Shown: piece by piece, positions 1,653-19,702 of the stretch
How positions within the stretch are numbered: position 1 is the stretch's first letter
Layout: each line of letters starts with the position of its first letter
DNA from: Rubrivivax sp.
GTDB taxonomy: Bacteria; Pseudomonadota; Gammaproteobacteria; Burkholderiales; Burkholderiaceae_C
Direction: 5' to 3'
NCBI GenBank assembly: GCA_030653505.1
Contig: JAURZK010000185.1
Coordinates: 13,807 to 77,806, forward strand
Length of the DNA stretch: 64,000 bases
Notes under the pieces: generated by a model
Databases searched by the model: none
What the model saw: only the letters and a program-made list of their open reading frames with translations
Told to the model about the DNA's origin: nothing
Made by a program: the position numbers and the translations under genes

Positions 1653-1792
1653 GCGCGTTCGCCCCAGACCCTGGTGACGCTCTGAATGATGCATTTGAAC
1701 CATACCAAAGATCCGACGCTGCCCTGAGCATCCGGCGCACAAGCGTGGTGCCACGGTGGCCAGGACGTGCAGTTCGTCAATCAGGATCGAGG

Positions 1793-4402
1793 ATGAGCAT
1801 GAAATGCGGGACCGGGAGCAGGATCTGGGCTGTGGCGCTGGCCACGCTGTTGGGGGCGTGCGGCGGCGGTGGCGGTGATGGCGCGGCTACGGGCTCAGGC
1901 ACGAGCGTCAGCAAGGTTCCCAGCATCTCGGGCTTCGAGCCGAGTTCGGCGCCCCCGGGCGCGACCATCACGATTGCCGGCAGCAACTTCAGCACCACGG
2001 CATCGGCCAATGCCGTCAAGTTCAACGGCGTCGCGGCGCCGGTGGCCGCTGCCACGGCAACGTCGCTAAAGGTCACGCTGCCCAGCGGTGCCACCACCGG
2101 CAACGTCACGGTGCAGGCGACGGATGGCAGCACGACCAGCCTCGAGCAGTTCATTGTTCTTGCGCCGCTGCCGAGCATCACCAAGTTCTACCCCCCATAC
2201 GCCGCACCTGGGAGCATCGTGACCATCACCGGCAGCGGCTTTGGCGGTGCTCCCGCTGAAAACACGGTTTGGTTCAACGGCGCGCCGGCAGAGGTGGCGA
2301 CGGCGAGCGCCACCTCGCTCACGGTCACGGTGCCGCTTGGCGCCAGCACCGGGAGCTTGGCTCTGCGCACCCCTGGCGGCGAGGCAACGGCAACGGGCAG
2401 CTTCACGGTCAACCCCACCGTGACAGGCTTCAGCCCGACCTCCGGAGCGCCGGGCGATGTTGTCACGATCACAGGCATCAACTTCGGGGCAACGGACGGC
2501 GTGGCCTTCTGGAATGGCATCGGAGCGCAGGTGACCAGCCGCTCCAGCACCGCGCTCACGGCCGTCGTGCCTGAGACGGGCTCCACCGGACGCATCAGCG
2601 TGACGTCTCAGAACTCGGTTTCCGAGATCTCCGTGCAGTCGGCCAGCACTTTCGTGGTCAACAAAGGGCCCAAGATCGACAGGTTCGTTCCAGCCTTCGG
2701 GCTGCCGGGTTCAGCCGTCACCATCTACGGCAAACGCTTCGCCAGCACGGCTGCAGGCAACACGGTGCAGATCGGTGGCGCGACAGCAGTCGTCGCGCTG
2801 GTGAGCGTCTTTGGCCTCGGCGAGGGTTACATCAGGGTCATCGTTCCTGCCACCGCCAACACCGGCTACATCACCGTGACCACCACCAACGGCTCTGGCA
2901 TCTCGGCAGAGCAGTTCGGGACCACCGCTACGGCTCCACCTGCGGCCAACAGGCTGCTGGCGCTGAGCCCCGACCCGCTCTTGGACTTTGGCACGCAGAC
3001 CATCGGCAGCTACCGCTTCGAAAGAGTCACGGTGCGCAACGTCGGCAGTGCCAGCTTGCAGATCAGGGGCGCGGCGGTGGCGGGCACGAACTTCGACTTC
3101 CGCGGCACCAATTGCTACGGTTACAACTACCAGTTGGAGTTCTTCGACACCCTGGCCTCCGGCGCGTCGTGCTACGTGGAAGTGGGCTTCAACTCGACCG
3201 TAGCCGGTACCAGCACGGGTGCCGTTTCCGTCACCAGCACGGCCATCGGCGGCACCTACAGCGTGGGGCTCAGCGGTAACGGCACGGCGCCGCTGACGCC
3301 CGCGATCACGCTGGCGCCGAAGTCGCTGAGCTTCGCGTCCCAGGAAATGGGCACCGTCAGCGCAGCCCAGGCGATCAGACTGACAAATTCGGGAACGGCC
3401 CCGCTCACGGTGCAGGGTATCGGCGTAACTGGTGACTTCGCGCGGACTCACAACTGCCCTTCAAGTCTGCCTGCCGGGGGGGCTTGCACGATCAACGTCA
3501 CCTTCGCGCCCGCCGGTCCGGCAGGCCCCAGGAGAGGCGATCTAGCGTTCGTCACCAACGCGCCGAGCGGCTTGATGGGCATCTCGGCCTCAGCACCTCT
3601 GCTCGGTACGGGAACGCTGAGCAAATCCGGGCAGTTGGCGATCTACACGCGCGAATCCTGGGGCATCGACGGCGTGTACCTCGATGGCTTCTGGGTCAGC
3701 GGGGGTCTCTCGCCCACTGGCCAGAACCTGTGCGGTGGCCAGGGTGCGATCACGCTCACGGTCGCCCCAGGCCAGCACACCATCAGCGCCTATGACGCCG
3801 TGCTGTCGATCGCAGACGCCGCAGTGACAGTCACCGAGGGCGCTTGTACCGTGCACAGGGTCGTCGGCACATCGACCTGCCTGTCGCCGCAGATCATCTC
3901 CAACGGCGTTTGCACCGACCGGACACCGTTGACCTGCGTGCAACCGGCGGTGCTGCAAAACGGTGTCTGTGTCGTCCCAGGCACGACGCCTGGCGGCAGT
4001 GTTGGCACGGGCGGTAGCCTGAGCGCCGGCGCCGGCGCGTATGCGGGAAAGTTCATCAATTCTGACGGGGGCACAAGTTCACCGCAGTGTTTGTCGTTCG
4101 GGCTGCTGAAGGGCTCATCGGAACCATATGACTCGCAGACCATCACCAACAAGTGCAGCTTCAAGGTCTACGTGATGCGCTGCCATACGCCGTCGACCCG
4201 GGCTGGAACGGCCGACACGCAGTGCAACGCGACCGGCAGTGGTCGGTTCTACCAGCAATTCGGCTGGCTCGAGCCCGGCGAGGTGAAATCGAACTTCTAT
4301 TCTCTGCCGCCTGGCACCACGATCTGGTACGGCGCATGTTCCGGTGGCAACTTGCCCTCGGGTAAAGAAGTATCACTGACGGGCGATTACACCTGCCGCT
4401 AG
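1793..4402 (+). CDS. Surface lipoprotein with 4 IPT/TIG repeats, 2 ASH/choice-of-anchor-D-like Ig domains and a Cys-rich C-terminus
   Basis: Lipobox LLGAC followed by a Gly run; four P.(I/V)..F.P....PG..(V/I)TI.G..F repeats; two L.F..Q..G......(V/I)..N.G...L Ig modules; repeated C..P....NGVC units. Confidence 0.8.
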   Translation: MSMKCGTGSRIWAVALATLLGACGGGGGDGAATGSGTSVSKVPSISGFEPSSAPPGATITIAGSNFSTTASANAVKFNGVAAPVAAATATSLKVTLPSGATTGNVTVQATDGSTTSLEQFIVLAPLPSITKFYPPYAAPGSIVTITGSGFGGAPAENTVWFNGAPAEVATASATSLTVTVPLGASTGSLALRTPGGEATATGSFTVNPTVTGFSPTSGAPGDVVTITGINFGATDGVAFWNGIGAQVTSRSSTALTAVVPETGSTGRISVTSQNSVSEISVQSASTFVVNKGPKIDRFVPAFGLPGSAVTIYGKRFASTAAGNTVQIGGATAVVALVSVFGLGEGYIRVIVPATANTGYITVTTTNGSGISAEQFGTTATAPPAANRLLALSPDPLLDFGTQTIGSYRFERVTVRNVGSASLQIRGAAVAGTNFDFRGTNCYGYNYQLEFFDTLASGASCYVEVGFNSTVAGTSTGAVSVTSTAIGGTYSVGLSGNGTAPLTPAITLAPKSLSFASQEMGTVSAAQAIRLTNSGTAPLTVQGIGVTGDFARTHNCPSSLPAGGACTINVTFAPAGPAGPRRGDLAFVTNAPSGLMGISASAPLLGTGTLSKSGQLAIYTRESWGIDGVYLDGFWVSGGLSPTGQNLCGGQGAITLTVAPGQHTISAYDAVLSIADAAVTVTEGACTVHRVVGTSTCLSPQIISNGVCTDRTPLTCVQPAVLQNGVCVVPGTTPGGSVGTGGSLSAGAGAYAGKFINSDGGTSSPQCLSFGLLKGSSEPYDSQTITNKCSFKVYVMRCHTPSTRAGTADTQCNATGSGRFYQQFGWLEPGEVKSNFYSLPPGTTIWYGACSGGNLPSGKEVSLTGDYTCR

Positions 4403-5491: not shown

Positions 5492-6658
5492 CTAGCGCTT
5501 CTCAATGGCGTGCTTCAAGAAGGCACGGCCTTCCGCCAGCCTTCGGGCCGTACGCTGGATGGCCAGGCGCCGCACGACGGGTGCCGCACCTGCGCTGGCG
5601 TCGACGTCCGCCTCCACATAGATGACCCCCGATGGGTGGCCGAAGGCCAGCGTCCTCGTGACCTGGCCACGCGCCGCAGTGAGGATGCGGTGCGGCAAGC
5701 TGCCCGGGATCCGGCAGGCCAGGCCGGTGGTGGCGGTGAGCGTGCCCGCCAATGTCTTGCTGGCAGATCCCGAAGCGAACTGCCTCACCACCAGGTCGAT
5801 GCCCGCCGCCTCGATCAGCTCACCCTGGGTGCAACTGCGGTAGGCGGCGGGTGCGCTCAGCACGATCAACATGGGTGTCGACGGCGCCATGCGTGAATCC
5901 CAGTACGCGCGCAGGCCGCAGCGGTAGGCCACGGCCTGTCGGATGGCGTCCATGCGGCGCTTCAGGTCTTCACTGGCGTCGATCTCTTCCGGCGACTCGA
6001 TGCCGCTCATCCCCAGCGCGGTGTGGTGCACGTAGATCGCCATGTTGGCGCCATCGACAATCGACATCTCCACCGCGCCAACGCCGGGTACGTCCAGTAC
6101 CTCAGCCGCTTGGCCCGTGGGCAGCAAGGTGCCGGTGATCGCACCCACCGCCTGCGAGAAATCGAGCGAGATGGCCGCGCCGGTGCCGGGTACGCCGCCA
6201 ATGGCGAGGCTGCCGCGCCATTGCGGCTGGCCGTCCCGCACCGGCACCTCGACGCGGATCACGCGGTCGGTGTTGACGTTGTGCACCCGCACGACCGTGG
6301 TGCCGTCCACCGGTGCCACCAGGCCTTCCTGGATGGCATAGACACCCACGGCCGCCGTCAGGTTGCCGCAGTTCAGCTTGTAGTCCACCTCGCCGCGCAC
6401 CGTGCCGACCTGGCCGAACAGGTAGGTCACGTCGGTGCCCTCGCGCACCGGCGGGCCGATGATGGCGGCCTTGCTGGTGAGCTTGTCGGCGCCGCCCAGG
6501 CCATCGATCTGCCTCCGGTCGGGGCTGCCGAAGAGGTCGAGCAGGACGAGGCTGAGTTGCTCGCGGTCCGTGGGCACGTCCTGGGCGCGCAGGAAGATGC
6601 CCTTGCTGGTGCCCCCCCGCATCAGCACGAACGGCAGGTCGTCGCGCAGGATGCTCAT
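5492..6658 (-). CDS. PrpF/FldA-family isomerase (aconitate/methylaconitate/oxalomesaconate isomerase-like)
   Basis: N-terminal MRGGTSKG motif, RQIDGLGGA..LTSK and NCGNL motifs. Confidence 0.9.
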   Translation of the reverse strand: MSILRDDLPFVLMRGGTSKGIFLRAQDVPTDREQLSLVLLDLFGSPDRRQIDGLGGADKLTSKAAIIGPPVREGTDVTYLFGQVGTVRGEVDYKLNCGNLTAAVGVYAIQEGLVAPVDGTTVVRVHNVNTDRVIRVEVPVRDGQPQWRGSLAIGGVPGTGAAISLDFSQAVGAITGTLLPTGQAAEVLDVPGVGAVEMSIVDGANMAIYVHHTALGMSGIESPEEIDASEDLKRRMDAIRQAVAYRCGLRAYWDSRMAPSTPMLIVLSAPAAYRSCTQGELIEAAGIDLVVRQFASGSASKTLAGTLTATTGLACRIPGSLPHRILTAARGQVTRTLAFGHPSGVIYVEADVDASAGAAPVVRRLAIQRTARRLAEGRAFLKHAIEKR

Positions 6659-7078
6659 TCAGCCTGCGCGCTGGAAACGCGGGATGCTGATCTCGGGCGT
6701 GACGGGGTCGAACACCACCTGCACCACGTCGCCCACTTTCACGTCGGAAGGCGCGATGCCCACCACGTTGCTGATCATGCGCGGCCCCTCGTCCAACTGG
6801 ATCAGCGACACGTTGTAGGGCACGTCGCCGGTGAAGGTTGCGTTGTAGATCTGGTGGAACACGATGCTGGAATGCACGGTGCCGCGTCCCGAGATGGTCT
6901 TCCACTCGAAGCGGTCCGACAAGCAGTGCGGGCACACGTGGTTGATGGGGTAGCGCGGTTCGCCGCAGTCACCGCAGTGCTGCAGCGCCAGCTGCTGCTG
7001 TCGCGCGGCCGTCCAGAAGGGTCTGTTGGCGTCGTCCAGCGTGGGTAGGGGCTTGTCGTAGGGCTTGCTGTCGCTCAT
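6659..7078 (-). CDS. DUF35 Zn-ribbon/OB-fold protein
   Basis: FW.A.....L..QHCGDCG...YP...CPHC, then OB-fold V.L.EGPRM.SN(V). Start is ATG 7078 (MSDSKP). Confidence 0.9.
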   Translation of the reverse strand: MSDSKPYDKPLPTLDDANRPFWTAARQQQLALQHCGDCGEPRYPINHVCPHCLSDRFEWKTISGRGTVHSSIVFHQIYNATFTGDVPYNVSLIQLDEGPRMISNVVGIAPSDVKVGDVVQVVFDPVTPEISIPRFQRAG

Positions 7079-7092
7079 CTCGGTCTTCCCTT

Positions 7093-8241
7093 TCAGGCTG
7101 CGCGCAGGATCATCGCGTTGGCACAGTTCAGCGTCATGCCGCGGCCGGACACCAGGCAAGTCCGGGCGTCCGGCACCTGGCGCTCGCCGCAGGTGCCGCG
7201 CATCTGCCGCACACCTTCCACGGCATGCAGCCAGCCTTCCATGTACGACTCGGAGAGGTTGCCGCCGGCGGTGTTCACCGGCAGCTGCCCGCCCAGCTCG
7301 ATGCGGCCGTCTTCGGTGAAAGGCCCGCCTTCGCCCAGGCCGCAAAAGCCCGCGTGCTCCAGCCACAGGATCACGCTCATCGTGAAGTTGTCGTAGAGCT
7401 GCGCCACGTCGATGTCCTTGGGGCCCAGGCCGGCCATGCGGTAGGCGCGGTCCAGCGCGTCCTTCTGGTGGGGCACGTACCACCAGTTCTCGCGCTCCAT
7501 GTTCTGCGTGGTGTAGGCCTGGCCCATGCCGGAGATCAGCACCGGCGTCTGCTTCAGGTCCCGGGCGCGTTCGGCCGACGTCACGATCAGGCACACACCG
7601 CCGTCGCTGATCAGGCAGCAGTCGAGGAGGTGGAACGGTTCGACCACCATGCGCGAAGCCTGGTGCTCTTCGATGGTGAAGCGCTCGCGCATCACGGCGC
7701 TGGGATTCATCGAGGCGTGCTTTCGGCAGGCCACCGCCACGTTGCCGAGGTGCCGGCTGGTGGTGCCGTACAGGGCCATGTGGCGGCTGGCGGCCATGGC
7801 GCTGTTGGCCGCTGCACCGAACATGCCCCAGATGCCCCAGGAATCGCCCCAGCCCGAGGCACGGCCGAAGCGGTAGTTGCCGGTTCGCGCCGTGTCCGCG
7901 AAGACGCAAGCCACGTAGTCAGCCATGCCGCACTCGATGGCCATGGCGGCGTTCTGGATGAGCGCCCCGCAGGTGCCCCCGCCCATGGTCATGCTGCCGG
8001 TGTACTTCGGATCGATGCCCAGGGTCTCGCCCATGCGCAGGTAGTTCAGCGAGCCCTCGGGCGAGGTAGTGCCCGGCATGGTCAGCAAGCCATCGATCTG
8101 GTCCTTGCGCAGCCCTGCATCGTCCAGGGCGCGCTTGAACGCCTCGGTGGCCAAGGTCACCGGCGTCGAGCCCGGCAGCTTGCCTTGCGCCGTGGCGCCC
8201 ACGCCCACGATCGCGATCTTGTCCTTCAGGGATGTGCTCAT
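7093..8241 (-). CDS. SCP2-type thiolase-superfamily protein (Ltp2-like aldolase candidate)
   Basis: IAIVGVG start, AQLYDNFT, VNTAGGNLSESY..G..HAVEGVRQMRG. The canonical nucleophile Cys region reads MGGGT. Start is ATG 8241. Confidence 0.88.
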   Translation of the reverse strand: MSTSLKDKIAIVGVGATAQGKLPGSTPVTLATEAFKRALDDAGLRKDQIDGLLTMPGTTSPEGSLNYLRMGETLGIDPKYTGSMTMGGGTCGALIQNAAMAIECGMADYVACVFADTARTGNYRFGRASGWGDSWGIWGMFGAAANSAMAASRHMALYGTTSRHLGNVAVACRKHASMNPSAVMRERFTIEEHQASRMVVEPFHLLDCCLISDGGVCLIVTSAERARDLKQTPVLISGMGQAYTTQNMERENWWYVPHQKDALDRAYRMAGLGPKDIDVAQLYDNFTMSVILWLEHAGFCGLGEGGPFTEDGRIELGGQLPVNTAGGNLSESYMEGWLHAVEGVRQMRGTCGERQVPDARTCLVSGRGMTLNCANAMILRAA

Positions 8242-8261: not shown

Positions 8262-9038
8262 TCAGCGGCCGCGGTAGACCGGCGGCCGCTTTTCCTGGAA
8301 GGCGCGGCGGCCCTCGATGCGGTCTTCGGTGTCGCGCAACATGCCGAAGACATAACTCTCCATCGCCAGCGCCTGTGGCAGCGGCAGCGATGCGCCGTCG
8401 CGCACCAGTCGCTTGACCGCGCGCACCGACAGCGGCGCGTTCTGGGCAATGCGTCGCGCGATGGCGAGTACCGTCTCCAGCAGCTGCGCCTGCGGCACCA
8501 CCTGGCTGACCAGTCCGGTGCGCAGGGCTTCCTGCGCATCCACCCGGTCGCCCGTCAGCAGCATCAGCATCGCGTCGGAGCGCCCGATCACACGCGGCAG
8601 GGTCTGCGTGCCGCCGGCTCCCGGGATGCTGCCGATGCGCACCTCCGACAGCGCAAACTGCGCGTTCTCGGAAGCGATGCGCACGTCGCAGGCCAGCGCC
8701 AGCTCCATGCCGCCACCCATGGCGAAGCCATTGATGGCGCAGAGGATGGGCTTGTCCATCTCCATGCCGGCCAGCAGGTGGATGGACTGCGCCTGGCCAA
8801 AGCTGAGCTGGGCCGGGCTCTCCTTGGGCGGCATGGTCTTCTTGAGGTCCGACCCCGTGCAGAAGGCCTTGTCGCCCGCGCCGGTGAGCACGGTGCAGCG
8901 CACGGCATCGTCGCGCGCCACGCGCTGCCAGGCTTCGTGCAGTTCGAGGCGCGTCTCCGGGTCGATCGCGTTCATCGCCTCGGGCCGGTTCAAGGTGATG
9001 ATCGCGACGTGTTCGCGGACTTCGTACAGCAGCGGCAT
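8262..9038 (-). CDS. Enoyl-CoA hydratase/isomerase (crotonase)
   Basis: ITLNRPEAMNA, AFCTGSDL, AINGFAMGGGMELALACD, SEVRIGSIPGAGG. Confidence 0.93.
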   Translation of the reverse strand: MPLLYEVREHVAIITLNRPEAMNAIDPETRLELHEAWQRVARDDAVRCTVLTGAGDKAFCTGSDLKKTMPPKESPAQLSFGQAQSIHLLAGMEMDKPILCAINGFAMGGGMELALACDVRIASENAQFALSEVRIGSIPGAGGTQTLPRVIGRSDAMLMLLTGDRVDAQEALRTGLVSQVVPQAQLLETVLAIARRIAQNAPLSVRAVKRLVRDGASLPLPQALAMESYVFGMLRDTEDRIEGRRAFQEKRPPVYRGR

Positions 9039-9047: not shown

Positions 9048-10412
9048 CTAGGTCTGGGATGTCGCCGCGGCGGCCAGCCACTGGCGCGCCGATGTCCGGT
9101 CCAGGGCCAACGCGCCAGAGACGAGCCGGTCCACATCGGCCCGCGCCTGGCCCCAGGCCAGGCAGTCCTGCAACTTGCTGCGCAGTTCGGCAAGGGTCAG
9201 CGGCGCCTCTGCCGAGCCGCGCAGCTGATCGACGCGGCGCTGCAAGGTCTGGCCGTCGCGCAAGGTCAGCGTGATGTCGGCCCAGCGAGGGAACGCCGGA
9301 CCATCGCCGCTGTCGTCGGTGCTGACCTGCACGAAGAAGGTCTGCGCTTCGGGGCGCTGCACGGCGGCATCGGTGAAGCTGGACAGCCGCACGTCGCCAT
9401 CCAACAGCGCCGCGGCCACGGCGTACTGCATCGAGAACTTCGCTTCGAGGCCGGTCTGGGGCCGTGTGTGGATCAGCGGCGTCAGTGCGCCTGCGCTGGT
9501 ACGCACGTGCACCGTCTGCACGTCAGCCAGCGCGAGGCCCTGTTCGGCACGCAGGTCGAGCACCCCATCCAGCGTGCGGTGTGTGGCGTAACACAACGGG
9601 TACTTCTTGACCTCGATGCCGCTGCTGATCAGCTCCAACGGGCCCTGCCCCAGCGTGGCCAATTGCGCCTGCAGCGACTCGCCATGGCCATACAGGTCCA
9701 CATAACCGAAGGCGTCGTCCAGCACACCCGGCGCGGCATCGAAGCCTTCGGCCGCGAGCAGTGCTGCACGCAGACCGGCGGCATTGCTGTGGCCGGCCTG
9801 GAAGGACTTGGCGTGGGTGCCGAAGTTGGCCCGCGTACCTGCGGCCTGCGCCACCGCCAGCCCGATGGCGTGGGTGGTGCGCGCAACGTCCAGGCGCAGC
9901 AAGCGGGCGCAGGCCACCGCCGCCGCGAGGGTGCCGATGCTGGCCGTGGAGTGCCAGCCGCGTGCATAGTGCTTCAGCGCCATGGCCTTGGACAGCTTGC
10001 AGATCACCTCGAAGCCCACGACATAGGCGCATACCAGCTCGGCGCCATCGGTATCGCTCGCTTCCGCCAGCCCCAGCAGCGCCGGCAGCAGCGCAATGCT
10101 CGGATGGCCGCGCAGCGGCGAGGTCACGTCGTCGAAGTCCAGCACATGCCCGGCCACGCCGTTGCACAGCGCGGCCAGCTCCAGCGGCAGTCGCTCGCCG
10201 CTGCCCCAATGGCTGGCGGCCCGCCCTGGCGCGGGCAATGCGCTGGCGCGGGCGTATTGCAGTGCCAGTTGCGAGGCCGGCTCGTGACACCCGGCGATGG
10301 CGCAGGCATAGGTGTCTACGAGCGCGCGCCCGGTGGCGTGAAGCAGATCGGCCGTCAGCTGCCGGGTCTGGAAGCCGCAGGCGAAGTGGGCGATACGTTC
10401 GGCTGCCTTCAT
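9048..10412 (-). CDS. MmgE/PrpD family protein
   Basis: NGVAGHVLDFDD, GHPS, RGWHST, K.FQAG, K.YPLCYATH motifs. Confidence 0.92.
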   Translation of the reverse strand: MKAAERIAHFACGFQTRQLTADLLHATGRALVDTYACAIAGCHEPASQLALQYARASALPAPGRAASHWGSGERLPLELAALCNGVAGHVLDFDDVTSPLRGHPSIALLPALLGLAEASDTDGAELVCAYVVGFEVICKLSKAMALKHYARGWHSTASIGTLAAAVACARLLRLDVARTTHAIGLAVAQAAGTRANFGTHAKSFQAGHSNAAGLRAALLAAEGFDAAPGVLDDAFGYVDLYGHGESLQAQLATLGQGPLELISSGIEVKKYPLCYATHRTLDGVLDLRAEQGLALADVQTVHVRTSAGALTPLIHTRPQTGLEAKFSMQYAVAAALLDGDVRLSSFTDAAVQRPEAQTFFVQVSTDDSGDGPAFPRWADITLTLRDGQTLQRRVDQLRGSAEAPLTLAELRSKLQDCLAWGQARADVDRLVSGALALDRTSARQWLAAAATSQT

Positions 10413-11629
10413 TGCAGCACCCCCTGCGCCCGGAGCGCGTCGATCTCGCCCGGTGTCAGCGCCAGAAGCTCGCGCAGCACCTCATCGGTGTGCTGGCCCA
10501 GCAGCGGCGCGGGCCTGTTCGGCAACCCCGGCGTGCGCGACAGGCGGGCGGGCAGGGCGTTGTAGACCGTGCGGCCCATCTCCGGATGGTCCAGATACAC
10601 CCAATGGCCGCGTGCCTGCAACTGAGAATCGCGGAGCAGTACGTCCGCCGCGTCCTGCACCGGGCCCGCGGACACGCCCAGCGCCTGCAGTCGTTGCGCC
10701 AGCTGCCCTGCGTCATGCAGGGCCGTGCAGCGGGCCAGGGCGGCGTCCAGAGCCTCGCAGTGCTGCCAGCGCGCCGTGGCGCTGGCGAAGCGTGTGTCCT
10801 GCGCCAACTCGGGCGCTTCCAGCACCTGCAGCAGCGCTTGCCAGGCGGCGTCGCCGGGCGCCGAGAGGGCGATCCAGCGGTCGTGTCCTTGTGTCGGGTA
10901 CACGCCGTGCGGCGCGCCTGCGAGATGCCGGTTGCCCACCCGCTCGGCCACTCGGCCGTTGGCGGTGTAGTCCAGCACGGCCGGGCCCAGCAGCGAGATG
11001 GTGGGCTCGATCTGCGCCACGTCTATGAACTGCCCCTCCCCGGTACGGCGACGGTGCCGCAGGGCGGCCAGCACGGCAAAGGCCGCGTGGGTGGGGTTGG
11101 GCACGTGGTCGGGGAAGTTCGTGCCCGTGCCTGCGGGCTGCTGGTCGGGCAGGCCACACAGGTGGTGCAGGCCGGTGACCGCACCCATGGTCAGTCCGTA
11201 GCCCAGGTAGTTGGCCTCCGGGCCGGTCTGGCCGTGCATCGACATCGAGACATAGACGATGTCCGGCTTCATTTCGCGCACGGCCTCGTAGCCCAGGCCG
11301 AACTTCTCCATCGTGCCCGGGGTGAAGTTGTTCGCCACCACGTCGCTCCGAGCAACGAGCTGGCGCGCCAGCCTCTGGCCGGCTGCGGTCTTGAGGTTCA
11401 GCGTGACACTGCGCTTGCTGGAGTTGCGATCGGCGAAGTAGCCGCTGCGGTTGACGCCGCGCACACCGTCCTTGAACGGCTTGGCGTCGCGCAAGGTGTC
11501 CAGACGTTCCGCACTTTCAACCTTGATCACGTCGGCCCCGAAGTCGCCCAGGATCTTGGTCGTGTAGGAGCCGGCGCCTATCCAGGTGAAGTCGGCCACG
11601 CGGATGCCGGCCAGCGGAAAGGGCTTCAT
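10409..11629 (-). CDS. CaiB/BaiF family III CoA-transferase subunit (lacks the usual active-site Asp)
   Basis: PLAGIRVADFTW..AG....ILGDFGADVIKVE, NSSKRSVTLNLK, NFTPGTMEKFGLGY; start is ATG 11629 with ATGA overlaps on both sides. Confidence 0.9.
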   Translation of the reverse strand: MKPFPLAGIRVADFTWIGAGSYTTKILGDFGADVIKVESAERLDTLRDAKPFKDGVRGVNRSGYFADRNSSKRSVTLNLKTAAGQRLARQLVARSDVVANNFTPGTMEKFGLGYEAVREMKPDIVYVSMSMHGQTGPEANYLGYGLTMGAVTGLHHLCGLPDQQPAGTGTNFPDHVPNPTHAAFAVLAALRHRRRTGEGQFIDVAQIEPTISLLGPAVLDYTANGRVAERVGNRHLAGAPHGVYPTQGHDRWIALSAPGDAAWQALLQVLEAPELAQDTRFASATARWQHCEALDAALARCTALHDAGQLAQRLQALGVSAGPVQDAADVLLRDSQLQARGHWVYLDHPEMGRTVYNALPARLSRTPGLPNRPAPLLGQHTDEVLRELLALTPGEIDALRAQGVLQ

Positions 11630-12876
11630 GCGATCACGCCCTGGCGCAGGAGCACGGCCTGGACATCGGCGTCGTAACCCAGGGCGGCCAGCACTTCGGC
11701 GCTGTGCTCCCCCAGCCGCGGCGCGGGGCGACCCAGGCGCCACGGCGAGGCGGACAGGCGGTAAGGCGCGCCTGGCACGGTGAGCGTACGCCCGCTGTAG
11801 GGGTGAGGCGTCTGCTCGAAGTAGCCACGGTGGGCCAGTTGGCGGTTGTGCATCAGGTCGGCGGTGGTGCTCACTGGACAGATCGGGATGCGGCGCCGCT
11901 GGCCTTCGGCATACAGCTCGGCCTTGGGGTGTGCGGCCGCATAGGGCTCGAACACCTGCGCGAAGAGATCCTTGGCTTCGGCCGTTGCCAGGAAGCCGGC
12001 GTCGTGCCACCGCGGCTCGCGCAACTGGGCGGCCCCGGGGGCTTGCACGTCCGCCATCCATTGGGCCGTCACGTCCCAGAACTTGTTCGAAGCGATGCCG
12101 CCAGCCATGAGGTACACCATGCCGTCGCTGCACGGAAACACGCCGGTGCCGGCCTGGCGTTGCTGACCCGCATTGCGCTGGCGCACGGTGTTCTCCAGTT
12201 CGACGAACTGCACGGCGTTCTCCAGCGCCATGGCCACACTTTCCTGCACAGACACGTCCACGTGCTGGCCTTGGTGCTCGCCGGCTTGTCCTTCGACGTC
12301 CCATAGCGCCACCATCGCGGCCACGGCCGCGAACTGCGCGGCGGCCAGCAGCGCCTGGTTGCCATAAGGGGCGGTCGGCGCCAGGCCGGGGTAGCCGCCC
12401 AGCGACAGCAGGCCGCCGTAGGCCAGCGCCACCAGGTCGCCGCCTTCGTACTGCGCATACGGGCCGTCTTGCCCGAAGGTCGTGATGCTGGTGGTCACGA
12501 TGCCGGGCTGCAGGTGGGCCAAGGCGGCGTGATCCAGGCCGCGCGCTTGCATCCGGCCGGGCCGTTCGCACTCGATCACCAGGTCCGCGTGTTGAACCAG
12601 CGCGCGAAAGATCTCTTGCCCCTGCGCTTCGTCCAGATCCAATGCCACGCCGCGCTTGCCCTGGTTGAAATAGGCAAAGCCAAGGCTGTGTTCGGGGTGG
12701 ACGTGGTCGTCGAGAAAGGGACCCTCGCGCCGGCCCGCACAGCCCGTGGGTGGCTCGACCAGCAGCACATCGGCACCGAGTTGCGCGAACAGCTTGCCGC
12801 AGTACTGCTCGCTGCCCTGAGCGAGATCGAGTACCCGGATACCCGAGAGCGGGCCTGAAGCGGATGGCGATGTCAT
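11626..12876 (-). CDS. CaiB/BaiF family III CoA-transferase subunit
   Basis: PLSGIRVLDL...CGKLFAQLGADV..VEPP, NQGKRGVALDL, FGQDGPYAQYEGGDL; start is ATG 12876. Confidence 0.9.
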   Translation of the reverse strand: MTSPSASGPLSGIRVLDLAQGSEQYCGKLFAQLGADVLLVEPPTGCAGRREGPFLDDHVHPEHSLGFAYFNQGKRGVALDLDEAQGQEIFRALVQHADLVIECERPGRMQARGLDHAALAHLQPGIVTTSITTFGQDGPYAQYEGGDLVALAYGGLLSLGGYPGLAPTAPYGNQALLAAAQFAAVAAMVALWDVEGQAGEHQGQHVDVSVQESVAMALENAVQFVELENTVRQRNAGQQRQAGTGVFPCSDGMVYLMAGGIASNKFWDVTAQWMADVQAPGAAQLREPRWHDAGFLATAEAKDLFAQVFEPYAAAHPKAELYAEGQRRRIPICPVSTTADLMHNRQLAHRGYFEQTPHPYSGRTLTVPGAPYRLSASPWRLGRPAPRLGEHSAEVLAALGYDADVQAVLLRQGVIA

Positions 12877-13109: not shown

Positions 13110-14093
13110 GTGAAGCACACCCTGAACACCGGTCGGCGCATCGTGCTGGGCGCGGCTCTCGCGGCGACGCTGGCTGCATCGGCCCCCGCGCAAGCGCAGG
13201 ACTTCCCGAACAAGCCCATACGCCTCATCGCCCCCTTTGCCGCCGGCGCCAGCACCGACTTCCTGGCCCGTACCGTGGCGCAGTCCATGAGCAAGGAACT
13301 CGGGCAGCAGGTGGTGGTCGAGAACAAGCCGGGTGCCGGTGGCATGCTGGCCGCCGAACTGGTGGCGCGCTCGGCGCCGGACGGCTACACCTTCCTGCTG
13401 ACCTCGGCCGGCATCGTGACGATGAACCAGCACATCTATGCGAAGCTGCCCTACGACCCGATCAAGGACTTCACGCCGCTGACCATCGCCGTGCGCATGC
13501 CCATCGTCACGGTGGTGAACCCCTCGGTGCCGGTGAAGAACCTGCATGAACTGCTGGCCTATGCGAAGGCCCATCCAGGCAAGTTGACCTATGGCTCGGC
13601 GGGCACCGGCACGTCGCAGCACCTGGCCGGTGAACTCTTCAAATCCATGGCCGATGTGGACCTGCTGCACGTGCCCTACCGCGGCGGCGGCCCGGCGATG
13701 ACCGACCTGCTGGCCGGGCAGATCGACATGATGTTCGTTCAGGTGCCTTCGGCATTGCCGCAGGTCAAGGCGGGCAAGGTGCGCGCCATTGCGGTAGGCA
13801 GCGACAAGCGCGACGCCAAGCTGCCCGACGTGCCTACCGTGGCCGAGGGCGGCGTGAAGGGCTACAACTCGGACACGTGGTACGGCTTCGTTCTGCCCGC
13901 CGGAGTACCCGCGCCAGTGGTTCAGAAGATGCACGCGGCCGTCGTGAAGGCCCTGAAGGAAAGCGAGCAGAAGCTGTCCGACCAAGGCTTCAACGTCGAT
14001 GGCGGCAGTGCCCGCGAGATGAGCGACACCATAGTCGCCGAATCGAAGAAGTGGGCGGTGGTCATCAAGGCCGCCAACATCAAGCCCGAGTGA
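13110..14093 (+). CDS. Bug/TctC tripartite tricarboxylate transporter substrate-binding protein
   Basis: Signal peptide; FPNKPIRLIAPFAAG..TD.LAR, VENKPGAGG, PDGYT, HVPYRGGGPA..DLLAGQ. Confidence 0.95.
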   Translation: MKHTLNTGRRIVLGAALAATLAASAPAQAQDFPNKPIRLIAPFAAGASTDFLARTVAQSMSKELGQQVVVENKPGAGGMLAAELVARSAPDGYTFLLTSAGIVTMNQHIYAKLPYDPIKDFTPLTIAVRMPIVTVVNPSVPVKNLHELLAYAKAHPGKLTYGSAGTGTSQHLAGELFKSMADVDLLHVPYRGGGPAMTDLLAGQIDMMFVQVPSALPQVKAGKVRAIAVGSDKRDAKLPDVPTVAEGGVKGYNSDTWYGFVLPAGVPAPVVQKMHAAVVKALKESEQKLSDQGFNVDGGSAREMSDTIVAESKKWAVVIKAANIKPE

Positions 14094-14107
14094 CCCACGC
14101 CGGCCCC

Positions 14108-15331
14108 ATGCATCACACGCACGACTTCCGTGCGGTGTGTTACCCGTTGCGGGTGTACAGCGGCGAGCATGCCTTGACAAGCTTGCACGGCGAGCTGGCA
14201 CGCGCAGGCGCGAAGCGCGCCCTGTTGCTGTGCGGCCGCAGCATCCGTGAGCGCAGCGACCTCGTCGAGCATGTGATGGGGCTGGCCGGAGGACGCATCG
14301 CCGCCGTCTGTGCCGACATCGGCGCCGGTGCGCCGCGCCACCAGGTGGAAGCCGCAGCCGTGCTGGCCGATGAGATGCAGGCCGACGCGCTCATCGCCGT
14401 GGGCGCGGGCAGCGTCACCAAGGCCGCACGGGTGGTCGCGGTGCGCCTGGCTGAAGACGGCCCGCTGGAAGCGCTTGCCACGCAGTACGACGCGCTGGGT
14501 CGCGGCCGCAGCACCCGCCTGCCGAACCCCAAGCTGCCGATCTTCAATGTGCTGACCGCCGCCACCAGCAGCCAGAACCGTGCGGGTGCTTCGATCCGCG
14601 ACGACGCGAACGGCCGTCAGCTCGAGTTCTTCGACCCCAAGACCCGACCGCGCGCCGTCTTCTGGGACGCCAAGGCGCTCTCGACCGCACCGCTGTCGCT
14701 GACGCGCGCTGCGGCGGGCATGGAGTACTGGTGGGCGTTGATGAACCTGGCCGGCGCAGGCGACGAGAACCCTCTGGTGCTGGCGAGCCGCCAACAGTGC
14801 TGGGCCATCGCCCGGGCCGCGATGCCCCGCATCGACGACCCGGCAGACTGGCGGGTGCGGGTCGACCTCTGCGCGGCGTCGCTGCTGCGCACGCGTGACG
14901 AGGACGACGGCGGCCTGCCTCTGGGCGTGGCCTCGGGCAGCCACGAGATGCGCATGCACCCCATCACCCGGGCCGTGTACATGCTGGCGCACAGCCTCTT
15001 CAACACCGGCACCGGCATCAGCCAGCCCGAAGCGACCCTGGCCCTGGCCGCGCCGGCCGTGCGCGTGTTCGGCGACCTCTGTCCCGATGTGGTTGCCGAC
15101 ATCGGCAGGATGCTGGAAGCCGGCGACGCGTCGGCCACCGGGGTGGCCCGTGCCCTCGAGGTCGAGTTCCACCGCTTCGGCTACACGCTGAACCTGCGCG
15201 CGGCCCGCGTGCCGCGCGACCGCGCGCAAGCCGTGATCGAGCACGCCTTGCGCACCTTCAACTGCAATGCCGATGGCTGGATGAACGACAAGGCCAAGCG
15301 CCTGCATCAGATGCTGGCCGAGGTCTTGTAA
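14108..15331 (+). CDS. Divergent iron-containing alcohol dehydrogenase / maleylacetate-reductase-fold protein
   Basis: P.RVYSG...L..L..EL, ADALIAVGAGS, RP.AVFWD...L...P; the metal-ligand motifs are degenerate. Start is ATG 14108. Confidence 0.7.
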   Translation: MHHTHDFRAVCYPLRVYSGEHALTSLHGELARAGAKRALLLCGRSIRERSDLVEHVMGLAGGRIAAVCADIGAGAPRHQVEAAAVLADEMQADALIAVGAGSVTKAARVVAVRLAEDGPLEALATQYDALGRGRSTRLPNPKLPIFNVLTAATSSQNRAGASIRDDANGRQLEFFDPKTRPRAVFWDAKALSTAPLSLTRAAAGMEYWWALMNLAGAGDENPLVLASRQQCWAIARAAMPRIDDPADWRVRVDLCAASLLRTRDEDDGGLPLGVASGSHEMRMHPITRAVYMLAHSLFNTGTGISQPEATLALAAPAVRVFGDLCPDVVADIGRMLEAGDASATGVARALEVEFHRFGYTLNLRAARVPRDRAQAVIEHALRTFNCNADGWMNDKAKRLHQMLAEVL

Positions 15332-15362: not shown

Positions 15363-16343
15363 ATGAACCGTCATACCTTCTTGCGCTCGCTTACCGCCTG
15401 CGCTGCCTGGACGCTGGTTGCTGGCACGGCCGCTGCGCAGACCTTCCCGAGCCGACCGATCAAGATGATCGTGCCCTTCAACGCTGGTGCTTCGGTGGAC
15501 ACGATCGCGCGCCACATGGCACAGCTGATGGCCAAGAAGCTGAACCAGACGGTGGTGGTCGAGAACCGTCCCGGCGCCAACGCCGCCATCGCCGCGCAGG
15601 CCGTAGCCAATGCGCCGGCCGACGGCTACACGATCTTCTTCGCCTCGGACTCTGCGCTGGTGTTGAACGGCCTGCTGTACAAGAAGCTGGCCTATGACGC
15701 CGAGCGCGACTTCACGGCGGTGGCACTGGGCGCCAATGTGCCGCTGGTGATGCTCGTGAACGCCTCATTGCCGGTCACCAACCTGAAGGAGTTCGTCGCC
15801 TACGGCAAGCAGAACCCGGGCATATTGAATTACAGCTCCACAGGCACCGGCGGTGCCTTCCACTTGGCGGGCGAGATGTTCTCGCAGGCCGCGGGCATCG
15901 ACATGACTCACATCCCCTTCACTGGCGGCGCGCCGGCCTTGCAGGCGCTGCTCGGCGGTCAGGTGCAGGTCATGTTCGGCATCGTCGGTTCATCGCTGCC
16001 GCACGTGCGTGCAGGCAAACTGCGGGCCCTGGCGCTGGTCACCAAGGAGCCGGTCAATGTGCTGCCCGGTGTGCCCACGCTTCACGGCAGTGGCTACCCA
16101 GGCCTGGAGGCCATGGTGCGTTATGGCCTCGTCGTCCACAAGAAGACAACCCCCGAGGTGCTTGCGGTGCTGAGTGAGGCCGCCAATCACGCGCTGGCCG
16201 ATGCCGGCTACCGCGAGAAGTTAACCGGTGAAGGGTACCTGGTGCCTGAACCGCACAAACCTGCGGTCTTTGACCAGAATCTGGCCGCCGACCGCACACG
16301 CTGGCAGGCACTGATCAAGTCGCGCAACATCAGCCTCGAGTGA
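15363..16343 (+). CDS. Bug/TctC substrate-binding protein
   Basis: FPSRPIKMIVPFNAG, VENRPGANA, ADGYT, HIPFTGGAPA.QALLGGQ. Confidence 0.95.
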   Translation: MNRHTFLRSLTACAAWTLVAGTAAAQTFPSRPIKMIVPFNAGASVDTIARHMAQLMAKKLNQTVVVENRPGANAAIAAQAVANAPADGYTIFFASDSALVLNGLLYKKLAYDAERDFTAVALGANVPLVMLVNASLPVTNLKEFVAYGKQNPGILNYSSTGTGGAFHLAGEMFSQAAGIDMTHIPFTGGAPALQALLGGQVQVMFGIVGSSLPHVRAGKLRALALVTKEPVNVLPGVPTLHGSGYPGLEAMVRYGLVVHKKTTPEVLAVLSEAANHALADAGYREKLTGEGYLVPEPHKPAVFDQNLAADRTRWQALIKSRNISLE

Positions 16344-16356: not shown

Positions 16357-16947
16357 ATGATTGGCGAGGACCCCACACGCACCCCGATCCACGCGCGTGA
16401 CGTGCAGTTCCGCAGTTACTTGCGCCAGGACGGCCTGTGGGACATCGAGGCAACGCTGCTGGACACCAAAGCCTACGACCAGGTGGCCATCGAGCGCGGC
16501 GCGCTGCTGGCGGGCACGCCCATCCACCACATGCACATCCGGCTGAGTATCGATGACAGCTTCACGGTGCGCGAAGTGCAGGTGGCGATGCCGGCCACCC
16601 CCTTCGGCGAATGTCAGCACACGCGCGCGCCACTGGATCTGCTGGTGGGCAGCTGCGTCGGCAGTGGATGGCGCAAGATCATCCAGGAGAAGATGGGCGG
16701 CGAGCGGGGCTGCACGCACCTGCGCGAACTGCTGGCCGGGATGGGCACGGTCGCCTTCCAGACTGTGGGCCGCCACCGCGCGCACCTGCGCAGGCAGGCC
16801 GGGTTGCCTGAACCCATTCAACTGACCCCGCGCCCGCCGCTGGGCGAATGCCTGGGATGGGCCTTTGACGGCGCCCCTATGCAGCGTTACCGGCCCGAGT
16901 TCTTCGGCTGGCGGCCGCCGGCGGCCCCTGTACCCTCGAGGGACTGA
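16357..16947 (+). CDS. DUF2889-family protein
   Basis: H.R......Y.R.DGLWDIEA.L.D.K, IHHMHIRL.ID, PFGEC, GCTHL.ELL motifs. Confidence 0.75.
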   Translation: MIGEDPTRTPIHARDVQFRSYLRQDGLWDIEATLLDTKAYDQVAIERGALLAGTPIHHMHIRLSIDDSFTVREVQVAMPATPFGECQHTRAPLDLLVGSCVGSGWRKIIQEKMGGERGCTHLRELLAGMGTVAFQTVGRHRAHLRRQAGLPEPIQLTPRPPLGECLGWAFDGAPMQRYRPEFFGWRPPAAPVPSRD

Positions 16948-17765
16948 GGGGTGGCGGGGGCCGCCTGCGCCTGGCGATCCACCAGTGCAGCCTCGATCGC
17001 ATCCACGGCTGTGCGCAGCAAGGCGGCAATGACCGCCGCGCGCTCCTCGTCGATGCGCGTGGCGACGCTGGACACACTGATGGCCGCCACGGGCTGGCCG
17101 CCGGGCGCACGAATGGCCATGGCCACGGTGCGCACATCGGGCAACTCGAGCACCTTGCTGAGCACATAGCCGCGGGTGCGGGCACGGGCCAAGCTGCGCC
17201 GCAGCACGGCCTCGGAATAGCGGGGGAATCGCTTGGTCGCGCGCTCGAGGTTGGCCCTGCAGACGCGGTCGAGTTCGATGTCGTCCATCGCGCTCAGGAT
17301 GGCTGTCGCGCCCCCACCCACCACCAGGGGTCGGCGCTTGCCCACGTCCAGCACATAAGCCTTGATCGGGGCATTGCCTTCGGTGCGGTCTGTGCACACC
17401 CCATCCAGCCCGGAGCGCTCGGTCAGGAATACGGTGTCGCCGCTGATCTCGGCAATGCGTTCCAGGTGCGGATGCACGATGTCTCGCAGCGCCAGTTGGG
17501 GCGAGGCCGCCAGCCCCATCTCGTACATCGCCGGGCCCAGGAAATAACGCCGGCTTCCGCCTTCTTGCCGCAGCAGACGTTCGGCCACCAAGGCCTGCAG
17601 CAGGCGGTGCGCCGTGGGGCGCTCCAGGCCGGCTGCGCGGTGAAGATCGGCCAGCCGCAGCCCCGAACGCCGTCCCGCGGCCACCAGGCGCATCAGCAGC
17701 GCCACACGCTCCACCACCTGGCTGCCGCTGCTGCGCGCAACCCGGGTGTCTTCCAACGCTTTCAT
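16887..17765 (-). CDS. IclR family transcriptional regulator
   Basis: GSQVVERVALLMR HTH, TAHRLLQALV, RY.LGP, TGDT-like SGDTVFL, effector domain with AAISVS; start is ATG 17765. Confidence 0.92.
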   Translation of the reverse strand: MKALEDTRVARSSGSQVVERVALLMRLVAAGRRSGLRLADLHRAAGLERPTAHRLLQALVAERLLRQEGGSRRYFLGPAMYEMGLAASPQLALRDIVHPHLERIAEISGDTVFLTERSGLDGVCTDRTEGNAPIKAYVLDVGKRRPLVVGGGATAILSAMDDIELDRVCRANLERATKRFPRYSEAVLRRSLARARTRGYVLSKVLELPDVRTVAMAIRAPGGQPVAAISVSSVATRIDEERAAVIAALLRTAVDAIEAALVDRQAQAAPATPQSLEGTGAAGGRQPKNSGR

Positions 17766-17863
17766 TATGTGGACCTCTTTCACAAGCCAGTCACGGCGCA
17801 AGGCATCACGCACTACCTATGATTCTGCCCTCACTCTCGGATCCGGCTGTCCATATGTCGGAA
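17760..17863. promoter_or_regulatory. Two operator-like motif copies, one overlapping the IclR start codon
   Basis: TTTCATTATGTGGAC at 17760-17774 covers the IclR ATG (17763-17765); GTCCATATGTCGGAA is at 17849-17863. Confidence 0.55.
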
Positions 17864-17882
17864 CACATTGCAGGGACACACC

Positions 17883-19070
17883 ATGAACTTCGAGTTGCCC
17901 GAGACCACGCGGATGATTCGCGACACCGTCCGCGAGTTCACCGAGCGCGAGCTCAAGCCGCTGGAGCCGCTGGTCATCCGGCGCGAGGCCGAGCGCGGCT
18001 TGAAGGACGACCCGCTGCTGCCGCCCGAGGTGGAGCACACGCTGCAAGAGAAGGCGCGTGCCATTGGGCTGTGGGGCATCGACGTGCCCGAGGAGTTCGG
18101 TGGGCAGGCCTTCGGCGCGTTGACCAAGTGCGTCGTGACCGAGCAGTTGAAGCATTCCATCGTGCACTTCGTTCCACCGCCGGACAGCCCCAATCTGTAT
18201 CTGCTGAAGGAACTGTGCAAGGGCGCGCAGATCGACAAGTACTTGATGCCCTATGTGCGCGGCGAGAAGAAGAGCTGCATCGCACTGTCGGAGGAGGGCG
18301 CGGGCTCGGACGCGGCGGCCATCCGGACCCGTGCCGAGCGCGTGAACGGCAAGTGGGTGCTGAACGGCGCGAAGATGTGGATCAGCAATGCCCGCCGTTC
18401 GCACTTCATGATCGTCGTGGCCGTGACCGACGCCAGCAAGGGTTCCCGCGGCGGCATCTCGGCGTTCCTGGTGGACCGCGACCACCCGGGCGTGAGCATC
18501 CCCACCTCGTATCCGATGATCGGTGAGTACCACCCCTACCAGGTCTTCTTCGACAACGTGACCCTGGACGACGGCCAGGTGCTGGGCGAGGTGGGCAACG
18601 CGTTCGTGCCCATCACCAACCGACTGGGCGTGCGCCGCCTCGACATCGCCTCGCGCTGCCTGGGATTGGCCGAACGCTGCCTGCAGATGATGATCGAGCA
18701 GGCCAACACGCGGAAGACCTTCGGCCAGCTGCTGGCCGACCGACAGGCCATCCAGTGGATGATCGCCGACAGCTGGCAGGAGCTGGAGATGGTGCGCCTG
18801 CAGGTCTATCAGCTGGCCTGGAAGGTCGACCAAGGCGTGAAGGACTTTCGCCGTGACGGGTCGATGGTGAAGGTGCAGGCGACGGAACTCATCCAGCGTG
18901 TGGCCGACAGGGCCATCCAGCTGTTCGGTGGCATGGGTCTGTCGAAGGAACTGCCGCTGGAATTCATAGCACGTTCGGCACGCGTGCTGCGCATCGTCGA
19001 GGGCCCCAGCGAAGTGCATCGCTGGGTGATAGCTCGCGACCTTTTGAGAAACGGTCTGCCGGCAACCTGA
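17883..19070 (+). CDS. Acyl-CoA dehydrogenase
   Basis: ALSEEGAGSD, WVLNGAKMWISNA, RKTFGQ.LADRQAIQW, IQLFGGMG, RIVEGPSEV (catalytic Glu). Confidence 0.95.
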   Translation: MNFELPETTRMIRDTVREFTERELKPLEPLVIRREAERGLKDDPLLPPEVEHTLQEKARAIGLWGIDVPEEFGGQAFGALTKCVVTEQLKHSIVHFVPPPDSPNLYLLKELCKGAQIDKYLMPYVRGEKKSCIALSEEGAGSDAAAIRTRAERVNGKWVLNGAKMWISNARRSHFMIVVAVTDASKGSRGGISAFLVDRDHPGVSIPTSYPMIGEYHPYQVFFDNVTLDDGQVLGEVGNAFVPITNRLGVRRLDIASRCLGLAERCLQMMIEQANTRKTFGQLLADRQAIQWMIADSWQELEMVRLQVYQLAWKVDQGVKDFRRDGSMVKVQATELIQRVADRAIQLFGGMGLSKELPLEFIARSARVLRIVEGPSEVHRWVIARDLLRNGLPAT

Positions 19071-19672: not shown

Positions 19673-19687
19673 GTCCATGTGTGTGAA
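19673..19687. promoter_or_regulatory. Operator-like motif copy upstream of the NUDIX operon
   Basis: GTCCATGTGTGTGAA, ending 15 nt before ATG 19703. Confidence 0.45.
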
Positions 19688-19702
19688 CAAACCGGTGGCA
19701 GC

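Follow-up and report, generated by a model that had tools for sequence, protein, structure and literature searches.

What does a thiolase homologue without a nucleophilic cysteine do in a bacterial catabolic operon, next to a gene for a DUF35 protein? The question is raised by positions 6659-8241 of a 64,000-nucleotide (nt) stretch of DNA from Rubrivivax sp. (assembly GCA_030653505.1, contig JAURZK010000185.1, positions 13,807-77,806, forward strand), here called the window. This segment consists of exactly two minus-strand genes, which encode a thiolase-fold protein of 382 amino acids (aa) and a stand-alone DUF35 protein. An earlier note on the same DNA had read the pair as a probable retro-aldolase related to the steroid side-chain aldolase Ltp2 and possibly acting on another class of substrate. 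The tyrosines of the active site, the relatives of both proteins, the DUF35 partner, and a neighborhood free of dehydrogenases all agree with that reading, and we consider it probable that the pair is an Ltp2-type thiolase-fold retro-aldolase in a Bbs-like catabolic operon and not a thiolase. We infer the aldolase activity, its regiochemistry, succinyl-coenzyme A (succinyl-CoA) as a product, and the identity of the substrate.

Active site and presumed partner of the thiolase-fold protein

The 382-aa protein carries the NTAGGNLSESYMEGW signature and matched the Pfam family Thiolase_C_1 (PF22691) at 5.5e-45. Its AlphaFold2 (AF2) model, built from 101 sequences, had a predicted local distance difference test (pLDDT) value of 94.2 and was matched by Foldseek to >30 thiolase-fold chains with a probability of 1.0. 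The top structural neighbors were 4u4e, 6ok1 (Ltp2), and 9myr (Sal). Sequence searches of the PDB retrieved 4u4e (1e-69), the Ltp2 of Thermomonospora curvata (TcLtp2; 6ok1_A, 3e-68), the Sal of Comamonas testosteroni (CtSal; 9myr_A, 9e-46), and BbsB (2.5e-32).

When aligned with its paralogue L019, a canonical SCP2 thiolase of this genome that reads NNCSTGS, HDCF, and KGHP, the protein has Gly88 at the position of the nucleophilic Cys, YDNF in place of HDCF, and Tyr333 in place of the GHP histidine. None of the SCP2-thiolase catalytic set (nucleophilic Cys, HDCF Cys, and GHP His) was kept in the alignments, and a canonical Cys/His/Cys triad was not present; the earlier description of a nucleophile-less homologue is thus borne out. 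The strings on which that description drew, SMTMGGGTC, LYDNF, and ESYMEG, lie at residues 83-91, 282-286, and 331-336. The sole Cys near the nucleophile position, Cys91 (within GGGTCG), is replaced by Ala in most of the 119 orthologues with identities of at least 75% and is therefore not a displaced nucleophile. The note had also pointed to a missing C-terminal CxGGG. No C-terminal CxG motif was found, but its absence is uninformative: in SCP2-type thiolases, the HDCF loop supplies the Cys that takes the place of the CxGGG Cys (PMC12329534). The telling changes are those from HDCF to YDNF and from the GHP histidine to Tyr333.

Across the same 119 orthologues, YDNF was kept in 118, ESYMEGW in 117, and Tyr333 in 117, and Asn285 was invariant across orthologues. 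In a wider set (101 homologues, with identities down to 35%), Gly88, Tyr283, and Asp284 were each at least 90% conserved. A tree with leaves labeled by motif alone, from which the named TcLtp2 and Mtb Ltp2 sequences are absent, placed the protein in a clade (support 0.994) that uniformly reads G/YDNF and has Tyr333 in 13/14 leaves. This clade is nested inside a larger radiation of Cys-less proteins in which the third residue of the motif varies. Arg367 was found in 100% of the clade members versus 1% of the proteins outside it. Judged from the alignment offset, this residue would sit in the loop that bears the CxG cysteine of classical thiolases, and it is a possible ligand for a free carboxylate.

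In TcLtp2, Tyr294 is the catalytic base, Tyr344 is the catalytic acid, and His296 lies in the oxyanion hole; CtSal uses Tyr302 and Cys304 instead (PMC12329534). An HMMER alignment to 6ok1_A placed Tyr283, Asn285, and Tyr333 on TcLtp2 Tyr294, His296, and Tyr344, respectively. Both tyrosines named in the earlier note are therefore present at the Ltp2 positions, and the protein carries an Ltp2-type rather than a Sal-type dyad; the Cys of the Sal-type Tyr302/Cys304 dyad corresponds to Asn285. This Asn could take over the hydrogen-bonding role of the oxyanion-hole His. The structural comparison with Ltp2 that the note had called for gave a template modeling (TM) score of 0.89-0.90 (Foldseek, AF2 model against 6ok1).

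The identification of the small protein as a DUF35 protein was also upheld. The small protein encoded at 6659-7078 had ChsH2-DUF35 (6ok1_B, 1.4e-22) and then Shy-DUF35 (9myr_B, 8e-20) as its best PDB matches, and it scored 21 bits against BbsA. Its gene begins 14 nt past the stop codon of the thiolase-fold gene. To place the pair in context, we used 80 related loci from reference genomes of Beta- and Alphaproteobacteria, Actinomycetota, and Chloroflexota (61-95% identity). Gene calling recovered the thiolase-fold gene in 79 of these loci, and neighbor counts are given out of 79. A DUF35 gene was present in 73/79 loci at a median of 4 nt downstream, and the four zinc-ribbon Cys residues were retained in at least 70/73 DUF35 orthologues. 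The DUF35 protein is presumed to be an obligate partner of the thiolase-fold protein.

Gene neighborhood and proposed pathway

The pair lies within a single run of seven minus-strand genes separated by gaps of ≤20 nt or joined by 4-nt overlaps (Table 1). Two of these genes encode family III CoA-transferase subunits that match the two chains of benzylsuccinate CoA-transferase, BbsEF. The product of 11626-12876, whose orthologues are ∼404-412 aa long, matched 9fn0_A at 3.5e-86 (293 bits; next PDB match, 114 bits), and that of 10409-11629 matched 9fn0_B at 2.2e-105 (356 bits; next PDB match, 199 bits). The crotonase-family protein has a catalytic Glu pair (E112 in GGGME and E132 in SEVR) that is kept in 64/67 orthologues. 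The MmgE/PrpD-like protein belongs to the epimerase/decarboxylase branch, whose members act on C2/C3-substituted succinates and include a methylsuccinate isomerase (PMC12290011); it is possibly an epimerase of a substituted succinate.

Much of this arrangement is conserved. A core consisting of two CoA-transferases, the crotonase, the thiolase-fold gene, and the DUF35 gene recurs in ∼60-73/79 loci from Proteobacteria, Actinomycetota, and Chloroflexota, with the crotonase in 68/79 (median, 40 nt upstream of the thiolase-fold gene) and the CoA-transferase family in 63/79, usually with two copies in a locus. Less constant are the MmgE/PrpD-like protein (46/79), TctC (35/79), the IclR regulator (29/79), an acyl-CoA dehydrogenase (ACAD; 28/79), and the PrpF-like protein (13/79). 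In Achromobacter and Primorskyibacter (82% and 68% identity, respectively; loci L001 and L002), an orthologue of the window's ACAD directly follows the DUF35 gene. Neither a 3-hydroxyacyl-CoA dehydrogenase nor a BbsCD-type alcohol dehydrogenase was found in the operon or the conserved neighborhood, and an open reading frame (ORF) resembling short-chain dehydrogenases/reductases occurred within 10 kb in only 4/80 loci.

Because no such dehydrogenase is present and the thiolase-fold enzyme is predicted to be unable to form an acyl-enzyme, we favor retro-aldol cleavage. Given an operon that is Bbs-like and non-steroid, the pair probably splits a hydrated substituted-succinyl-CoA by aldol chemistry. 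Our best reading is that the retro-aldolase replaces both the dehydrogenase and the thiolase in a Bbs-like β-oxidation of a 2-substituted succinate. In the proposed route, a carboxylate would be taken up via TctC-type binding proteins, and the MmgE/PrpD-like and PrpF/Mii-like enzymes may epimerize or isomerize it. The heteromeric CoA-transferase would then activate the substituted succinate with succinyl-CoA, as its homology to BbsEF suggests. If the resulting acyl-CoA is saturated, the ACAD would oxidize it, and the crotonase would hydrate the product to a β-hydroxyacyl-CoA. This 2-(1-hydroxyalkyl)succinyl-CoA, or a close analogue, would be cleaved without prior oxidation. Tyr283 would act as the base that deprotonates the β-hydroxyl, and breakage of the C-C bond would give an aldehyde or ketone and a succinyl-CoA enolate. 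Asn285 and backbone amides may stabilize the enolate, with Tyr333 as the acid that protonates it. The released succinyl-CoA could serve again as CoA donor, closing a CoA cycle.

The earlier note had proposed a tertiary β-hydroxyacyl-CoA as the substrate. This part of the proposal is not required, since the BbsEF-like CoA-transferases suggest that a 2-(1-hydroxyalkyl)succinyl-CoA is cleaved; its alcohol may be secondary, in which case an aldehyde would be released. Candidates for the substrate include succinates with a short alkyl or alkylidene group, fumarate adducts of the benzylsuccinate type, and tricarballylate or aconitate (the last two would yield glyoxylate). Accessory neighbors across the related loci include aldehyde dehydrogenases (20 loci), luciferase-like oxidoreductases (18 loci), D-2-hydroxyacid dehydrogenases (15 loci), and thiamine pyrophosphate (TPP) enzymes (15 loci); UbiX/UbiD, FAD_binding_2 flavoproteins, and Ldh_2 were also frequent. 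The aldehyde dehydrogenase, D-2-hydroxyacid dehydrogenase, and TPP neighbors would suit a product that is either a small polar aldehyde or a 2-oxoacid. In ∼5-10 loci (e.g., Chloroflexota L073:8094-10177), the core is adjoined by genes for a UbiX-type flavoprotein and a UbiD-type decarboxylase, a hint that the acid handled by some versions of the module is unsaturated or aromatic.

The distribution of the module is patchy. An even sample of 200 genomes of the same order contained no orthologue at E ≤1e-150, while members of the Actinomycetota, Chloroflexota, and Alphaproteobacteria carry orthologues with 61-80% identity. This pattern suggests that the five-gene core has spread by horizontal transfer. 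Judging from taxon names, the carrier hosts appear to be mostly aerobic heterotrophs. For two distant representatives (P0121 and P0122), the contigs are <2 kb long and offer no readable neighborhood. Close homologues (≥75% identity) are plentiful in metagenomes, where they are labeled "thiolase family protein" or "acetyl-CoA acetyltransferase"; these labels are probably wrong. The Rubrivivax genome itself (93% complete) encodes ∼10-11 thiolase-fold paralogues (contigs C21, C197, and C198; L009 and L011-L019), most with an adjoining DUF35 gene, and the nucleophilic Cys is kept in only two of them (L018 and L019). One paralogue (C21:88244-89383) is 74% identical to the window protein and has the same YDNF/ESYMEGW signature; its gene follows a crotonase gene and stands among four more. 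Other paralogues read YDSF, YDAF, or YDCF.

Table 1. Genes of the operon and its flanks, by position in the window
Predicted product	Position	Strand	Details
PrpF-family isomerase	5492..6658	-	388 aa; Pfam PrpF 1.4e-98; abuts the DUF35 stop codon
Stand-alone DUF35 protein, Cys4 zinc ribbon and OB fold	6659..7078	-	139 aa, start MSDSKPYD; Pfam zf-ChsH2 and OB_ChsH2_C
Cys-less SCP2/Ltp-type thiolase-fold protein, candidate retro-aldolase	7093..8241	-	382 aa, start MSTSLKDK; Pfam Thiolase_C_1
Crotonase-family enoyl-CoA hydratase	8262..9038	-	258 aa; Pfam ECH_1 4.8e-73; 20 nt upstream of the thiolase-fold gene
MmgE/PrpD-family protein, epimerase/decarboxylase branch	9048..10412	-	454 aa; Pfam MmgE_PrpD_N and MmgE_PrpD_C
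Family III CoA-transferase subunit resembling benzylsuccinate CoA-transferase chain B	10409..11629	-	Pfam CoA_transf_3
Family III CoA-transferase subunit resembling benzylsuccinate CoA-transferase chain A	11626..12876	-	Likely start ATG at 12876, 416 aa
TctC/Bug periplasmic carboxylate-binding protein, transcribed divergently from the operon	13110..14093	+	Pfam TctC 1.1e-85
Iron-type alcohol dehydrogenase	14090..15331	+	413 aa; Pfam Fe-ADH 1.1e-24
Second TctC/Bug binding protein	15363..16343	+	Pfam TctC 4.9e-66; ATG at 15363 gives 326 aa; gene caller start 15465
IclR-type regulator	16887..17813	-	Pfam HTH_IclR and IclR_C; conserved with the cluster
Acyl-CoA dehydrogenase (ACAD)	17868..19070	+	400 aa; Pfam ACAD domains

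Among the divergent genes, the first TctC has orthologues in close relatives. The iron-type alcohol dehydrogenase, which is kept in the closest loci and shows a weak NCBIfam match to 4-hydroxybutyrate dehydrogenase, may act on the aldehyde product or on a precursor alcohol. Further along, a 443-aa ORF (19679-21010) has an N-terminal NUDIX match only and a weaker codon score than its neighbors. It is followed on the plus strand (21007-24290) by a nitronate monooxygenase-like protein, an HpcH/HpaI lyase (citrate-lyase-beta/citramalyl-CoA-lyase-like), and an acetyl-CoA hydrolase/transferase-family CoA-transferase in a row; the last two resemble the Yersinia itaconate genes for RipC and RipA. Two further gene sets for CoA-dependent acid catabolism occupy 24328-35070 on the minus strand. 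The first comprises a crotonase, an ACAD encoded by two genes (products of 352 and 383 aa, both with partial ACAD domains) in the manner of heteromeric ChsE-type enzymes, and a DctP/Q/M TRAP transporter. The second comprises a crotonase, a MaoC/mesaconyl-CoA-hydratase-like protein, two family III CoA-transferases, and an ACAD. On the other side of the operon (666-4402), a LuxR-type regulator diverges from a large lipoprotein with IPT/TIG repeats (Pfam).

Alternative functions and points of doubt

The alternative that survives best retains C-C cleavage and changes its regiochemistry. The pair would be a citramalyl-CoA/β-methylmalyl-CoA-type lyase in a branched C5/C6-dicarboxylate route (itaconate, methylsuccinate, mesaconate, or 3-methylitaconate), where it would replace the usual HpcH-type lyase and release acetyl- or propionyl-CoA with pyruvate or glyoxylate. 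The PrpF-like protein is nearest to 3-methylitaconate delta-isomerase (3g7k, 2.1e-84, versus 2e-58 for PrpF, 2pvz), and the best PDB match of the MmgE/PrpD-like protein is iminodisuccinate epimerase (1e-67), followed by IRG1/CAD. A Pseudomonas MmgE/PrpD-family protein is a methylsuccinate isomerase, not an itaconyl-CoA hydratase, and it works with a family III CoA-transferase and an ACAD (PMC12290011). D-2-Hydroxyacid dehydrogenases and TPP enzymes are frequent neighbors, and an HpcH lyase is not among the frequent neighbor families of the related loci. However, the CoA-transferases match the heteromeric BbsEF far above all further family III enzymes of known structure, they stay far under the NCBIfam cutoff for succinyl-CoA:mesaconate CoA-transferase, and the PrpF-like and ACAD genes occur in only a minority of loci. 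We give the C5/C6-dicarboxylate route a low but not negligible probability. Its most specific form, with the pair in the place of citramalyl-CoA lyase in a cluster for itaconate or methylsuccinate, was downgraded to an alternative because the CoA-transferases matched BbsEF.

Less probable is a protein that cleaves no C-C bond and instead serves as a thioester decarboxylase, an isomerase, or a noncatalytic scaffold for neighboring enzymes. The Cys-less relative TbSLP slowly decarboxylates malonyl-CoA, if weakly, and DUF35 is a scaffold within the archaeal thiolase/3-hydroxy-3-methylglutaryl-CoA (HMG-CoA) synthase complex (PMC12329534). The substrates of the operon are also probably carboxylated. 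Nevertheless, a Tyr pair that hardly varies and active-site residues specific to the clade speak for catalysis, and the operon would be left with no C-C-cleaving step after hydration.

We hold it to be marginally less probable again that the protein is a working thiolase with another nucleophile, thiolyzing a 3-oxoacyl-CoA as BbsAB does. The fold, the BbsA/BbsB-like gene position in a Bbs-like operon, and several conserved Cys residues (C208, C209, C300, C362, and C373) would allow this function. It is opposed by the Gly at the nucleophile position, the Asn and Tyr that stand for the HDCF Cys and GHP His, the lack of conservation of Cys91, the absence from the conserved neighborhood of a dehydrogenase to make a 3-oxo substrate, and the lower score of BbsB (115 bits) than of Ltp2 (233 bits).

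Finally, an orthologue of Ltp2 or Sal acting on a steroid or bile-acid CoA ester is highly improbable: both enzymes are among the best solved matches and the top NCBIfam match of the crotonase, though below its cutoff, is EchA19, but identity is only 39% (Ltp2) and 31% (Sal), the PRK07855 score lies below its cutoff, hydration falls to a crotonase beside a stand-alone DUF35 protein with no MaoC-DUF35 fusion, the neighbors are dicarboxylate-type enzymes and TctC, and orthologous clusters occur in many taxa alongside small-acid genes. In agreement with the earlier note, no steroid ring-degradation genes were found in the cluster or elsewhere in the Pfam-scanned part of the window (to ∼35 kb). 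The steroid side-chain context (ChsE1/E2 ACAD, MaoC ChsH1/H2, and ring genes) was likewise not seen around the pair, whose neighbors are TctC, PrpD, and PrpF. The genome gave no match to KshA_C; this is weak evidence because the control genomes gave none either.

Several observations weigh against the retro-aldolase assignment itself. No function is known for 4u4e, the nearest relative of solved structure, and the oxyanion-hole His of TcLtp2 (YDHF) is an Asn here (YDNF). The protein falls short of the cutoffs of its two nearest curated NCBIfam families, scoring 319 bits against PRK07855 (cutoff, 469) and 322 bits against PRK06158 (cutoff, 421). PRK07855 is a lipid-transfer protein profile that we assume to cover Ltp2; a search of the control genomes with it returned nothing above the cutoff. 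By these curated criteria, the 382-aa protein does not qualify as an Ltp2 orthologue. Within the operon, the affinities of the PrpF-like and MmgE/PrpD-like proteins described above are also compatible with an itaconate or methylsuccinate-type pathway of the other regiochemistry, and the crotonase and ACAD have generic PDB matches only, so that their equivalence to BbsH and BbsG is one of position.

Relation to known systems

The biochemically characterized thiolase-fold aldolases that we found in the literature (Ltp2 and Sal) are all steroid side-chain enzymes. Our literature searches retrieved no paper that describes the cluster, and a transcriptomic study of C. necator makes no mention of thiolase or DUF35 genes (PMC13491972). 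Tentatively, and with more doubt than for the retro-aldolase assignment, we suggest that the YDNF subfamily (GGG...YDNF...ESYMEGW...GRG) comprises the first thiolase-fold aldolases for small non-steroid acids. With a BbsEF-type CoA-transferase and a crotonase, it may form an uncharacterized, horizontally spread "aldolytic" route that turns 2-substituted succinates (alkyl-, alkylidene-, benzyl-, or carboxymethyl-succinates, including tricarballylate or aconitate) into succinyl-CoA and an aldehyde, a ketone, or glyoxylate. Such a route would bypass the oxidation and thiolysis of the Bbs pathway in the breakdown of substituted succinates, for example as a CoA-dependent counterpart of isocitrate lyase or in the aerobic consumption of fumarate-addition products, and its aldolase would be a new biocatalyst for making or breaking C-C bonds, with succinyl-CoA as a product. 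If the activity is shown, the thiolase-fold aldolase class would extend from steroid side chains to general acid catabolism, and many metagenomic proteins that are now probably misannotated would gain a function.

The IpfD-IpfE pair of the ibuprofen pathway of sphingomonads is comparable in that a thiolase-like protein is encoded together with the ipfE product, a DUF35 protein. The Ipf gene context differs from that of the window, with a ring dioxygenase and a CoA ligase. The thiolase-like protein of that system is genetically implicated in removal of an acyl-CoA side chain from a non-steroid substrate, in a report that does not mention DUF35 (PMC9195938). The putative thiolase 4u4e of Sphaerobacter thermophilus, the best match in both sequence and fold (TM score, 0.87-0.92), is also Cys-less but reads YDSF and SYTHPGMYG where the window protein reads YDNF and ESYMEGW.

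The bile-acid C5 side-chain aldolase CtSal-Shy(DUF35) is Cys-less and DUF35 paired, shares the first Tyr of YDxx, and gave a TM score of 0.90. At 31% identity, however, it reads YDCY with a Gln at the Tyr344 position, whereas the window protein has Asn for the Cys and retains the second Tyr. The steroid C3 side-chain aldolase TcLtp2-ChsH2(DUF35) is closer, as both proteins lack the nucleophilic Cys, keep the tyrosine pair, and have a GGG-type nucleophile loop, and the small protein finds its best PDB match in ChsH2-DUF35. The systems differ in that the DUF35 domain of Ltp2's partner is the C terminus of a MaoC hydratase, while the window has a separate DUF35 protein and a crotonase hydratase, with activation by a BbsEF-like CoA-transferase and no steroid context.

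For the pathway as a whole, the nearest template is the Bbs module (BbsEF-G-H-CD-AB; 9fn0 and 7pxp) of anaerobic toluene degraders. There, BbsEF activates (R)-benzylsuccinate with succinyl-CoA, the ACAD BbsG dehydrogenates it, the crotonase BbsH hydrates the product, and BbsCD oxidizes the alcohol (PMC10818641). The window's CoA-transferase pair matches the BbsEF subunits one to one, and both clusters hold an ACAD, a crotonase, a thiolase-fold protein, and a DUF35 protein. In contrast, BbsCD and a Cys-bearing BbsB are found in the Bbs module only. The Bbs pathway ends in an acyl-CoA, whereas the window's operon is predicted to release an aldehyde or ketone.

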